Below are positions 9,850 to 13,491 of a stretch of DNA of 57,879 bases, in pieces. This stretch comes from Aulosira sp. ZfuVER01. Its GTDB lineage: Bacteria > Cyanobacteriota > Cyanobacteriia > Cyanobacteriales > Nostocaceae. The translations under genes and the position numbers were made by a program. The notes under the pieces were generated by a model, which saw only the letters and a program-made list of their open reading frames with translations, had not been told where the DNA came from and did not search any database. The stretch lies in the NCBI GenBank assembly GCA_034530615.2, contig JAVRCV020000060.1:1-57879 (forward strand), written 5' to 3'. The stretch's first letter is position 1. The number at the start of each line of letters is the position of its first letter.

Positions 9850-10923
9850 TTAAAATAAAGGCACATTTAACCCTATATTCACTCCTACAGAAAAGTTGTC
9901 TAAGTCTACCAATGGGTCTGATGAAGAACCAAAAAGATAGGATGCTGAACCACTGATAAATAAATCTGGGTTAATGTTGTAAATTGCTTCTAAACCTATT
10001 TGGTTTTGAGTATCAAATCTCTCTTGTTGGGTGAAGTCTTTTAAACTTAAGCGGTAGTCTAATGCACCTTGCAGTTGGGGTGTAATGTCATAGCGCAAAC
10101 GCGCTCCTAAAGTGTTGGCTACACGATTTTGGTCGCTGGGTGTGGCAAAGCTAGCGCGTAGTTCGTAAAATGAATCGAGTCTCAGGCGATTATCTAATTG
10201 ATCCTGTCGCCCTACAGTTAAGCGAACTGAATCATCTAATAATAAGCGATCGCCACTACCATCTCTGTAAAGTCTCTCCTGAACCCATCCCAGTTGACCA
10301 TACATTCCCCTGGTAAGGCGTTGTTGTATCCCCACATTAAAGTTGAGGTAGTTGTAATTAAAGTCTCCTTGGTCGGCATATCTTACCAAACCACCACCCA
10401 CAGCAGCTATCAAGCGGGTATCTTCTGCTAGTTTAGGTGTTGCTAGTAAGGTAGCACCATTAATAAATACCGTATCACTTGGTTGAAATACTTCAAAACC
10501 TGTAATGTTAGAACTGGTAAAGGTTGAGGAACGTAGTAATAGTTGCACATCAGGCTGACGGCGCTGGGGTGGTTGTTGTGGCCGAGGAGGGATAATTTTA
10601 ATCTCGCCTAATTCTGCCTCAACATCCTGTGGATCGGTTGCTTGATTTGAGTCAGCAGGAGGGAAATCTGCGGGATTATTCGGGTCGCCAGGAACTACAG
10701 GTACTTGAACTAAAATTGTCTTTTCTGGGTTTTGCTGACTCTGCACAGAATCATTGGTAATTACTTCTGGTATTGGTTTTAGAGAATCTGCTTGTGTGGA
10801 AACGGGGAAATTCTCGCTTGGGGTAGGATTAGCAGCTGCACTATGATGAATGTCCCAAGTCAACAAGGTAGCTAACGAACAAAGTGCAATCGGAAAAGCA
10901 CGCATAAGTAATTCAATATTCAA
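9850..10923 (-). CDS. Outer-membrane beta-barrel protein
   Basis: Signal peptide, Pro/Gln-rich linker, amphipathic beta strands and a C-terminal Phe. Confidence 0.8.
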   Translation of the reverse strand: MNIELLMRAFPIALCSLATLLTWDIHHSAAANPTPSENFPVSTQADSLKPIPEVITNDSVQSQQNPEKTILVQVPVVPGDPNNPADFPPADSNQATDPQDVEAELGEIKIIPPRPQQPPQRRQPDVQLLLRSSTFTSSNITGFEVFQPSDTVFINGATLLATPKLAEDTRLIAAVGGGLVRYADQGDFNYNYLNFNVGIQQRLTRGMYGQLGWVQERLYRDGSGDRLLLDDSVRLTVGRQDQLDNRLRLDSFYELRASFATPSDQNRVANTLGARLRYDITPQLQGALDYRLSLKDFTQQERFDTQNQIGLEAIYNINPDLFISGSASYLFGSSSDPLVDLDNFSVGVNIGLNVPLF

Positions 10924-10991: not shown

Positions 10992-12062
10992 TCAAGGTAC
11001 TTGTCCTCGTCCACCAGTTTGACCGCCAGTCTGACCACCAGTTTGACCGCCAGTCTGACCGCCAGTCTGACCGCCGGTTTGACCACCGGTTTGACCGCCA
11101 GTTTGACCACCAGTTTCTCTTCTAGGTGGAGTTACAACATTGCGATCGTCTTCAAATCTCCGCAGTGGGTCATCGTTAGTGGTGATACAGTTAGTGGAGA
11201 GTGTACTAGCTCCACTACGAGAATTGAGATTACACAAACCTTCAATCCAGACTTTTTGTGTATTTAATCCTGCTAAGGTTTCTTTTCTGACTTTATTGAG
11301 AACTACCTGCACATTGGCAGATTCTTGAGCTACTAATGCTTCTTGTCCTGGCCCTAAGCCAGCAGCTAGTTGGCTAGTTTGGTAAAACTTCTGTAAGTCA
11401 AAGTTTTGTACTGGACTGATTACCCCATTGTTAATTGTGACTGTTTGACCAGCTTGTAAAATTTGGGTTTGAGTACCGTTGAGATTGCTTACTGTAACTG
11501 GCAGATTGGTTAAATTAAAAACTTGGGTGATATTAGTTGCACCGTTATGAGTAACAGCTACAGCCCCACTTGTAGCAGTTGGAGGTAATATATCTGAACC
11601 TGGAGGCGGTGCTGCTGCAATTACGTCAATGCGGCTTTGAGGCGTTTCGATTGTCGTTCCTGTACTACCAGATGGAGTGAGGATTAAAGCAGTACCATTT
11701 CTCAGTTCAAAAATAGTTTCTGCTTTGTAAATACCACCCGGTAATTCAAAGCGACGTATTCCTGGCTTAAACCTAAAGGTTGCACTAGAACCAATTCTGG
11801 CTAAAGAACCTTCATTAAATAATAATTCGGCACGCGATCGCGATTTTGTCTGAAGTGCATCTAGAGGAACCAACACATCTGCCTTTTTAGCAGCGCGCGG
11901 TGGTTTATCTTTTAGCAGCAATTGCACTTGATTCAGCAACTTATAAACTTCTGCACGGGTAAGTAAATCTTGCTGCGCCAATGCAGGAGTTATCCAAGAT
12001 ACTGTAAGAACAATCCCTACAATTATTTTTTGAGCTAATGACCGCATCCGCCAATCCATCAC
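10992..12062 (-). CDS. Exported FecR-domain protein with C-terminal (TGGQ)8 tail
   Basis: Signal peptide. DALQTKSRSRAELLFNEGSLARIG is a FecR-like motif. Confidence 0.82.
   Translation of the reverse strand: MMDWRMRSLAQKIIVGIVLTVSWITPALAQQDLLTRAEVYKLLNQVQLLLKDKPPRAAKKADVLVPLDALQTKSRSRAELLFNEGSLARIGSSATFRFKPGIRRFELPGGIYKAETIFELRNGTALILTPSGSTGTTIETPQSRIDVIAAAPPPGSDILPPTATSGAVAVTHNGATNITQVFNLTNLPVTVSNLNGTQTQILQAGQTVTINNGVISPVQNFDLQKFYQTSQLAAGLGPGQEALVAQESANVQVVLNKVRKETLAGLNTQKVWIEGLCNLNSRSGASTLSTNCITTNDDPLRRFEDDRNVVTPPRRETGGQTGGQTGGQTGGQTGGQTGGQTGGQTGGQTGGRGQVP
11011..11115 (-). repeat. 12-bp coding tandem repeat encoding (TGGQ)8-TGG
   Basis: ccaccagtttga/ccgccagtctga units, which vary only at synonymous positions. 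Confidence 0.9.
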
Positions 12063-12308
12063 AACCTTAAATAAAAATGTTATCTATGATTAGAACATTT
12101 GTTCTGAGATTTTAGACTACAAACTGCGATCGCCTTTTTCCAGATAAGTGTTTGTTACGTTTGGTAAATCGAAGGTTTTGGGCAGATGGGGGGATACGGG
12201 AGATCAAGGAAATGACTTCTTTTGTTTAAGAAATTGTTGCAATTTGCGAGTGTAAATCTACTAACAAGTAAAGTTTGGTTTCAAGTATTACACATCACAA
12301 TTTAATGG

Positions 12309-12317
12309 TGCTATTTT
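12309..12317 (+). promoter_or_regulatory. Putative extended -10 (TGcTATTTT) for ncRNA copy 1
   Basis: TGn + TAnnnT lies 7 nt before the first hairpin and is conserved in position in copy 2. Confidence 0.5.
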
Positions 12318-12324
12318 AGTAATT

Positions 12325-12596
12325 GAAGCTACAAAGCTTCCCTGGCAGATACAACAGCCAAGTAGGTCAAAGTCCAAGTTAGTTAAGAGGTAAAAAACGC
12401 TGTTACATCATCTGTCTCGTCAACGAACAACAACACCCAACTCGAAAGCTAATATTTCCTCAATGTGGTAAAGAGGGGGTAATACACCTCAAACTTAATT
12501 ACATAGCGAGTATGTAATTAGTAGTTGTAGCCCCGTGTGTTAACAGGAAACAGAGGAAATCACTAAGCAAGTCGTAGCTTGGGTGTTGTTGTTTTT
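12325..12596 (+). ncRNA. Putative structured ncRNA (~270 nt), copy 1
   Basis: No ORF. 5' hairpin, a second stem domain, and a long rod closed by a perfect 15-bp stem (12426-12440/12579-12593) followed by a T-run. Duplicated at +533. Confidence 0.65.
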
Positions 12597-12609
12597 AGAA
12601 TTTTTTCTA

Positions 12610-12730
12610 CAGTCTTTTTCAAGTAAATAAACCACGCGGTAGGGAACATCCACAATCTTCTGGTACAGACAATAATCTTACTGGTGCGTGCCCTATGAGT
12701 ATCTGTGGTTGAATTACCTAAAAACTGCTG
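12610..12730. mobile_element. MITE inserted between the two ncRNA copies
   Basis: Imperfect TIRs cagtctttttcaagtaaataaaccac / gtggttgaattacctaaaaactgctg, flanked by TA on both sides. Internal gtaggg…ccctat REP-like cargo. Confidence 0.55.
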
Positions 12731-12841
12731 TAAAAACGTCAGAAATCACGACAGTATGTAAAGTAATTGTTGCAACTTCTGAGTGTAAATTTTCACTCTA
12801 GTAAAGTTTAGTTTCAAGTATTATCTATACACAAATAATGG

Positions 12842-12850
12842 TGCTATCTT
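12842..12850 (+). promoter_or_regulatory. Putative extended -10 (TGcTATCTT) for ncRNA copy 2
   Basis: Same spacing to the 5' hairpin as in copy 1. Confidence 0.5.
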
Positions 12851-12857
12851 AATAATT

Positions 12858-13128
12858 GAAGCTACAAAGCTTCCCTGGCAGATACAACAGCCAAGTAGGC
12901 AAAGTCCAAGTTAGTTAAGAGGTAAAAACGCTGTTACATCATCTGTCTCGTCAACTGACAACAACACCCAACTCGAAAGCTAATATTTCCTCAATGTGGT
13001 AAAGAGGGGGTAATGCAGCTGAAACTTAGTTACATTGCGAGTGTGTAATTTAGTCGGTGTAGCCCCGTGTGTTAACAGAAAACAGAGGAAATCACTAAGC
13101 AAGTCGTAGCTTGGGTGTTGTTGTGTTT
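12858..13128 (+). ncRNA. Putative structured ncRNA (~270 nt), copy 2
   Basis: About 15 differences from copy 1 by manual alignment. Closing stem is 12958-12971/13111-13124. Confidence 0.65.
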
Positions 13129-13491
13129 AGAGGATATTTGAAAATTTAAAAAGTTGCCGGCTGCGATTTTAGTTATTCTTGGGTACATCGCAGTTTTTAT
13201 AAATCCTCACAGCCTAGAAGCTTTGCGATCAAATAAACCTCGTCCATTTTGTAACCTGGAGTAGTGCGGGCATTTTGCCGCTACGAAGAGCAGGGAGCAA
13301 GATGCTCCCACTACTTTTAAAACTATGGATATCAAAATAGATGTAATTTAGATATTTTCAATCTCCCGCTTGGTTTTAGGGAGAAATAATTAAGACTAAT
13401 TGATTCTTAGGAGAAGTGCGATCGCTCTTTTCTCTTCTTTAACTGAAAGCATAGGGTTAGTTTTGAGTACACAACTATAAGGCTTTGGGAT

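Follow-up and report, generated by a model that had tools for sequence, protein, structure and literature searches.

The stretch of DNA analyzed here, called the window throughout, is positions 1 to 57,879 of contig JAVRCV020000060.1 from the cyanobacterium Aulosira sp. ZfuVER01, and between 12228 and 13131 it contains a tandem pair of structured RNA units. Sequence comparison indicates that the two units are recently duplicated, probably separately promoted paralogs of PmgR1 (Ncr0700/DsiR1), a small RNA described in Synechocystis, and their membership of the PmgR1 family is close to certain. Comparison of homologs further shows that a Shine-Dalgarno (SD)-like motif, a CUG codon and the open frame that follows it are under selection in this family without a conserved peptide, and the short frame is probably translated. 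This SD-CUG-open-frame signal offers a concrete mechanism, amenable to testing, for an RNA whose mode of action is reported to be unsolved, and it suggests that a "non-coding" RNA can be selected for translation without any conserved peptide. Published papers are cited below by accession, for the excerpts that concern the point at hand.

Identity and fold of the tandem units

Positions 12228-12599 and 12761-13131 form a direct repeat with 90.9% identity over 374 nt. The spacing is 533 nt at the 5′ end, the period given by an earlier sequence-only reading of this DNA, and 531-532 nt further on because of indels. The RNA itself occupies 12325..12597 (+) in copy 1 and 12858..13129 (+) in copy 2, which score 127.7 and 134.7 bits, respectively, with model R1, a covariance model that spans the 5′ 117 positions and is based on 25 sequences, none of them of Synechocystis type. 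Copy 1 consists of a P1 hairpin, a P2/P3 domain, a rod of ~165 nt (P4-P7) and a U-rich tail (12325..12597, +); the labels P1-P7, and LSR, SVS and ICL below, were coined in this analysis.

The sequence-only reading had proposed a new non-coding RNA family. Ncr0700 has been renamed PmgR1 and is stated to be absent from Rfam (PMC12873609), and its Synechocystis sequence is printed in the supplement of PMC6596454. Read by eye, the P1 hairpin and six further motifs of that published sequence are colinear with the window RNA: the PmgR1 of Synechocystis sp. PCC 6803 shares the P1 hairpin, CTGGCAGAT, AACAGCC, AGAGGTAAAA, GCTGTT, ATCTGTCTCG and ACAACACCCAA, in that order. It also shares the 3′ GGGTGTTGTT arm (known from a published probe primer, PMC8682795 supplement), a similar length, and a CUG frame that by eye is open for 31 codons. 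It differs in an insert between P2 and P4 and in the inner rod; the Aulosira genome differs in having four copies, two of them in tandem, and the GTAAAGTTT-type box upstream of the window units differs from the box of Synechocystis-type loci. Model R1 scores three such loci at 52.7 bits (L087, E 1.7e-7 for its genome), 37.7 bits (L185) and 47.5 bits (L186). These loci closely follow the published Ncr0700 sequence, and the published 5′ probe primer matches them at 22, 23 and 22 of 25 nt, respectively, just before the RNA; the 3′ primer matches only in its stem part, with 7-8 mismatches of 22. An exact search with part of the 5′ primer gave no match in the genome collection, where the published locus itself was not found either; the basis for the link to Ncr0700 is therefore the close look-alike loci together with the reading by eye. 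A scan against Rfam, which the sequence-only reading had proposed as a check, gave nothing over the element at E up to 10, and one chance snoRNA match outside it. The colinear motifs and the model hits to the look-alike loci therefore identify the element, with near certainty, as a pair of homologs of Synechocystis PmgR1. The window units are ordinary members of a described RNA family and not a new one. The original PmgR1 paper, by de Porcellinis et al. in 2016, reportedly contains a homolog alignment and may already report multiple copies or the open reading frame (ORF).

Most of the fold in the sequence-only reading was confirmed at the positions it had assigned. In copy 1, helix P1 (GAAGC/GCTTC) lies at 12325-12340 and P2 (GGCAGAT/ATCTGTC) at 12344-50/12410-16, and the AACAGC/GCTGTT helix encloses a 40-nt loop. 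The rod spans 12426..12593 (+), with P4 at 12426-40/12579-93, P5 at 12454-61/12553-60, a central bubble and a variable apex; the closing stem is a perfect 15 bp in copy 1 and 14 bp in copy 2, and the ATTTCCTC/GAGGAAAT pairing is present where it had been placed. Folding z-scores are -3.98 (copy 1) and -3.41 (copy 2), values reached by 1 of 200 and 0 of 200 shuffled sequences, respectively. Three details hold for copy 1 only or chiefly: the AACAGC/GCTGTT helix is not formed in the minimum-energy fold of copy 2, the terminal T-run is weaker there, and the apical hairpin that had been quoted is specific to copy 1, the rod apex varying freely across the family.

Covariation was assessed on two alignments. 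In the alignment of 57 model hits, which is fitted to the model itself, 97.1% of cells pair and two-sided changes occur in 8 of 18 pairs, against 1.9 in shuffles. Independently, 50 of the 60 non-redundant full-length sequences were aligned with MAFFT; here two-sided changes occur in 27 of 47 pairs, against 9.3 in shuffles and 10-16 in slid controls. These changes lie mostly in the rod (12/13 P4 pairs and 8/8 P5 pairs). Of 136 parsed members, 103 have a rod of 160-169 nt, a count that leaves aside 76 further hits that did not parse. The bubble strands measure 12-17 and 17-20 nt in the 50 sequences, and the helices flanking them covary. P2 is nearly invariant, with its CAGA/UCUG core kept in 57/57 model hits, and this scarcity of variation suggests that the P2 sequence is recognized as such. 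An alternative P2 register, pairing with TCTCGTC, was no better supported (one two-sided pair), and the first register was retained. Within this genus, P2 has changed in its 5′ strand in some copies, together with the sequence after its partner. As the earlier reading held, each unit appears to be an independently transcribed structured RNA gene.

An SD-like loop, a CUG codon and an open frame

All 57 model hits carry GAGGU (45 hits) or AAGGAG (12 hits) in the P3 loop, 5-10 nt before a CUG that lies in the 3′ strand of P3. In the window, GAGGU is found at 12387..12391 (+) in copy 1 and 12919..12923 (+) in copy 2. The 16S 3′ tail of a same-genus genome, with which the copy 1 motif pairs, was used for all pairing estimates: mean energies are -7.3 kcal/mol for GAGGU and -8.0 kcal/mol for AAGGAG, and the motif is the best-pairing 10-mer of the 120 in the 5′ domain in 46 of 57 hits. 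Only 0.54% of 5000 permuted tails pair as well with both forms. The CUG is retained in 13 of the 14 members that lack its CAG pairing partner.

In each window copy the CUG would begin an ORF of 23 codons plus a stop, at 12400..12471 (+) in copy 1 and 12931..13002 (+) in copy 2, the two differing by one residue; the copy 1 frame, predicted to be translated from the family-wide avoidance of stops, passes through P2 (3′ strand), P4 and P5 (5′ arm of each). The sequence-only reading had seen no credible ORF here, which holds for ORFs of at least 50 aa between window positions 12062 and 13407 and must be amended for this short frame, since it is kept open family-wide. Among 201 distinct members (from 235 parsed hits; one was dropped as too short and partial-profile hits were not counted), none has a stop before codon 17 in the CUG frame, against 140 and 129 in the other two frames. 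In 54 non-redundant members, there are no early stops, against 21.4 expected after linker shuffling. Counted by frame, the first 51 nt contain 0/54/33 stop triplets (0/38/26 when the initial 9 nt are left out) and the following 51 nt contain 92/57/65. The stop could be located in 44 of the 54 members, and in these it lies beyond the 5′ arm of P4. Out-of-frame start-like triplets are equally far open in 76 of 235 cases.

Because linker length varies, the frame set by the CUG crosses the conserved P2 strand in different registers, reading it as LSR in 27, SVS in 25 and ICL in 2 of the 54 non-redundant members. SVS members have stops in the LSR frame in 10 of 25 cases and LSR members in the SVS frame in 11 of 27, and neither class has any in its own frame. 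The open frame tracks the CUG and not the structure. A conserved peptide was ruled out, since the coding frame takes three registers against the structure and the products are unrelated after residue 4-6.

The pattern holds in members obtained by other routes. The 86 members that did not come from the motif scan have 0/70/53 stops by frame. Of 16 hits fetched after the idea had formed, 11 were typical, 3 of these being duplicates; among the 8 new typical members, 7 are open for at least 17 codons and one (L236) for 16. Three later-fetched members without P3, two of them weak hits, combine 22-24 codons with a stronger SD (-11.8 to -12.6 kcal/mol). An SD, a start codon and an open frame kept by selection, the features of a translated small RNA, are thus found together.

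Several observations weigh against translation as the explanation, or limit how much the signal can carry. Of the permuted tails, 11% do as well with GAGGU alone, and among 50 purine-only double mutants 16 also keep the 16S pairing. The SD form switches 5 times on the best tree, with only 2 switches forced by well-supported branches, so the swap by itself is modest evidence. The frame classes need 7 changes on the best tree, mostly on weak branches, and well-supported branches force 2 per class. Opening a ribosome footprint is predicted to cost 7-8 kcal/mol, and the SD motif is only about half unpaired in predictions. Model R1 includes the SD and the CUG and biases its hits towards both; the open frame lies outside the model. 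There are exceptions: L235 has no SD, L236 has 16 codons, and L237 has only 15, with AUU instead of CUG. In gradient fractionation, PmgR1 peaks in fractions 8-9 and, in the excerpt of PMC12475003, is not reported in the ribosome-rich pellet; most PmgR1 is therefore not bound to 70S ribosomes. Neither PmgR1 nor ncr0700 is mentioned in the main text of a preprint (10.64898/2025.12.20.695498) on ribosome profiling at start and stop codons in Synechocystis. In two of the exceptional loci, further details are visible: at L235:1501-1609 an AUG and a GUG adjoin the CUG and the SD is lacking, and at L237:1501-1593 the SD is kept and AUU is the sole start-like codon.

No statement on translation of this RNA was found in the excerpted literature on PmgR1/ncr0700/DsiR1, including PMC11622646, PMC12329169, PMC12378183, PMC11288746 and 10.1101/2020.07.02.184192, a comparison outside which lie the original PmgR1 paper and ribosome-profiling tables. 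The tables of the profiling preprint and a thesis cited in PMC12612679 could list this ORF.

Proposed ribosome passage and its alternatives

We propose that the P2/P3 domain would display the SD-like loop ahead of a weak CUG start. A ribosome would load at the loop by opening P3, translate 17-33 codons, forcing open P2 and the rod base (P4, often P5) on the way, and stop within the rod; the peptide would be a by-product, and the passage of the ribosome would be what is selected. PmgR1 may then alternate between its folded form and one opened by the ribosome, depending on initiation capacity. The abundant RNA could tie up initiation machinery, or bind and release a protein that recognizes the invariant P2 core, and repeated tandem duplication would raise its dose. 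From the comparative evidence, we give this mechanism as a whole, for PmgR1 paralogs with an SD-CUG frame, slightly better than an even chance; its decoy and switch steps we only infer. A more specific reading is tentative and less likely than not, namely that PmgR1 is a ribosome-read gauge that ribosomes would unzip only if there is initiation capacity for it; its state, folded or opened, rather than its peptide, would signal to carbon metabolism or hold initiation machinery during darkness. If true, such an RNA would be a phylum-wide, translation-side counterpart of 6S RNA. A precedent is infC-type autoregulation, in which initiation responds to the level of initiation factors because a strong SD is combined with a near-cognate start; the infC ORF encodes a functional protein, whereas in PmgR1 only ribosome passage seems selected.

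A dose-dependent role fits what is reported of the RNA. It is the most abundant small RNA in the dark, in stationary phase and under heat (PMC6596454) and is strongly induced in an RNA-helicase mutant (PMC6693541), observations that a dose-dependent role fits together with the repeated duplication. In Synechocystis, dark induction, PmgA dependence, a requirement for photomixotrophic growth in light plus glucose and a role in glycogen control are described (PMC8682795, PMC6693541, PMC6596454, PMC6166021), and PMC8682795 reports processing by RNase E, with targets and mechanism given as unknown.

The principal alternative is that translation is housekeeping: the ribosome would shield RNase E sites or couple to transcription of the rod, and the folded RNA would regulate through a protein, either RNA polymerase, bound by a 6S-like rod, or another RNA-binding factor. 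RNase E does cut PmgR1 (PMC8682795), the gradient peak lies close to that of RNase P RNA (PMC12475003), and the narrow rod length, the bubble dimensions and the invariant P2 core given above all suit protein binding. Like 6S RNA (RF00013), PmgR1 has a long rod with a central bubble of open-promoter size, a likeness of shape only, as well as high abundance under low growth and, probably, a promoter of its own; it differs in the extra 5′ domain with SD, CUG and short ORF. The region has no RF00013 match at E up to 10, and a separate true 6S gene lies at G000:C15:23803-23985, which upholds the sequence-only reading in that the RNA is not 6S. Moreover, the ribosome site is common to the window family and the Synechocystis type and the inner rod sequence is not. 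We regard the housekeeping explanation as possible but rather unlikely.

Under a dual-function reading, the peptide of 17-33 residues would itself be active. The frame is open in 201/201 members, residue 2 is F or L in 51 of 54, and the frame is extended in phase in the Synechocystis type (31 codons in L087, 23 in L182). The three registers relative to conserved nucleotides and the divergence after residue 4-6 speak against an active peptide, and residue 2 is fixed by the P3 helix, so that this possibility appears improbable. It is distinctly improbable that PmgR1 is instead a base-pairing small RNA with the purine loop, or a strand freed from the rod, as a seed on mRNAs. PmgR1 has been treated as a small RNA regulator (PMC8682795, PMC6166021) and RNase E processing could free a seed (PMC8682795), but its sole invariant single-stranded motif is of SD sense and alternates between two versions, each of which fits the 16S tail. 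No target is known according to the excerpt of PMC8682795, and a seed does not explain stop avoidance specific to one frame.

A further reading would make the RNA a cis-acting leader or attenuator in which read-through into the following gene would depend on translation of the short ORF, with free-standing copies as offshoots. Leader-peptide attenuators and dual-function RNAs such as rnTrpL (PMC12612679) likewise have a short ORF in a structured small RNA, and the fold can depend there on the position of the ribosome (PMC12612679); PmgR1 differs in having no regulatory codon run, no fixed operon, a CUG start and an unconserved peptide frame. The same gene for a 256-aa protein lies downstream, in the same direction, in 58 of 209 member loci, and read-through into ssr2227 is reported in Synechocystis 6803 (PMC6596454, PMC5386190). 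However, the window copies lack the 256-aa gene, copy 2 following copy 1; the protein is unmatched in RNA-bearing lineages (0/4 in g30, 0/6 in g59); the RNA is free-standing in strain 6714 (PMC5386190); and the distance from RNA to gene ranges from 6 to 505 nt. Such an arrangement is very improbable as the family's role. A non-autonomous mobile element, a bridge or omega RNA, or a guide or retron RNA as the sequence-only reading had entertained, is largely refuted: 1-7 matches per genome at varied sites and large internal loops would fit one, but the four copies of this genome are only 70-91% identical, the inverted repeat closes only the 3′ rod with no terminal repeats around the unit as a miniature inverted-repeat transposable element would have, promoter and synteny are conserved, and among 118 neighbor representatives no reverse transcriptase, IS110 recombinase or IscB and just three unrelated transposase or TnpB hits were found, with no sign of guide or retron anatomy.

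Promoters, copies and neighboring genes

Upstream of copy 1, a GTAAAGTTT-type box at 12268..12284 (+), conserved in position in relatives and a likely activator site just upstream of the -35 region, is followed by an extended -10 element, TG-C-TATTTT, at 12309..12317 (+), and a predicted start site at 12323-12325 (+). The equivalents in copy 2 are the box at 12801..12817 (+), again recognized by sequence and conserved position, the -10 element at 12842..12850 (+), placed by its sequence and by alignment to copy 1, and the predicted start at 12856-12858 (+). The extended -10 box pointed out in the sequence-only reading does not pass a generic promoter scan, yet its columns are conserved in relatives, where a conserved -10 region follows the GTAAAGTTT-type box. 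The box lies upstream in 47 of 57 model hits, in 41 of these 56-57 nt before P1, and the published Ncr0700 sequence starts 2 nt ahead of the P1 helix. Scanning the genome with a weight matrix gave 16 sites, of which the best four are those of the four PmgR1 copies and the remaining 12 share no theme. The best match outside PmgR1, at G000:C78:6053 (+), lies 78 nt before a gene for a 170-aa protein; the ORF divergent from that gene we take to be alanine-dehydrogenase/transhydrogenase-like. A second, palindromic motif of TTGTTGCAA type lies ~90 nt upstream (window 12232-12242 and 12765-12775) and is seen only in copies of this genus. HLR1 was rejected as the upstream box by eye, as the spacing in the excerpt of PMC13421787 does not fit, and no RpaA consensus for comparison was found in the literature.

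Contigs from 4 of 4 soil RNA libraries examined (of 24) cover only 12346-12593 and 12875-13121. These contigs come from relatives, were selected for containing the stretch, carry no strand or end information and have shares of 0.07-0.23. Their cover fits, if weakly, a discrete abundant RNA, and the uncovered flanks are a weak hint of the same kind. One contig (run X3 record 6, window 12348-12593) folds back on itself through the inverted repeats of P4 and P2 and is self-closing, either an assembly artifact or the result of reverse-transcriptase template switching across the stems.

The genome holds four PmgR1 copies, the window pair and copies on C49 and C32 at 70-74% identity. By BLAST, PmgR1 is present in 48 of 61 related genomes (its own included), with 1-7 matches each. 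Model R1 detects it in 45 of 151 genomes across the phylum, with 0 of 57 in family f40, and in 19 of 41 genomes of a class sample; these model counts are lower bounds, as weak matches fail the strict filters. In the named collection, a motif scan gave at least 119 stretches, and among the matches listed, 79 of 80 are titled cyanobacteria, so that PmgR1 is widely conserved in this group. Tandem arrays of 2-4 copies recur in distant lineages and the two window copies are sisters on the tree; duplication has therefore happened repeatedly. The longer arrays have four copies (L065, L198) or three (L099, L008, L010-L012). In a single case, an AAGGAG-type copy, L175:2082-2441 (-), lies just downstream of a gene for a ribosome hibernation factor (PF02482).

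The neighbor scan covered 118 of 135 clusters (proteins of at least 100 aa), and its three hits to mobile-element genes are one TnpB and two transposases. The 256-aa conserved cyanobacterial protein is encoded downstream of one PmgR1 copy in many lineages, for example at G000:C32:162399-163163 and L019:1824-2591, which is probably the ancestral site of the PmgR1 gene. It matches no Pfam family and no convincing NCBIfam family, and its C-terminal half gives a weak TIR-like (CAP12) lead. The protein was rejected as a partner of PmgR1, being unmatched in two RNA-bearing genera, and no RNA hit was found upstream of its gene in any of 18 stretches selected because the RNA had been missed there or lay elsewhere. 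Beside the window RNA is a divergent gene pair, at 10992-12062 (-) and 9850-10923 (-). The latter encodes a beta-barrel protein; the former encodes a secreted-looking 356-aa protein without a Pfam match, which ends in eight 12-nt repeats (GGQT) and whose gene precedes the RNA at 11 member loci within the genus.
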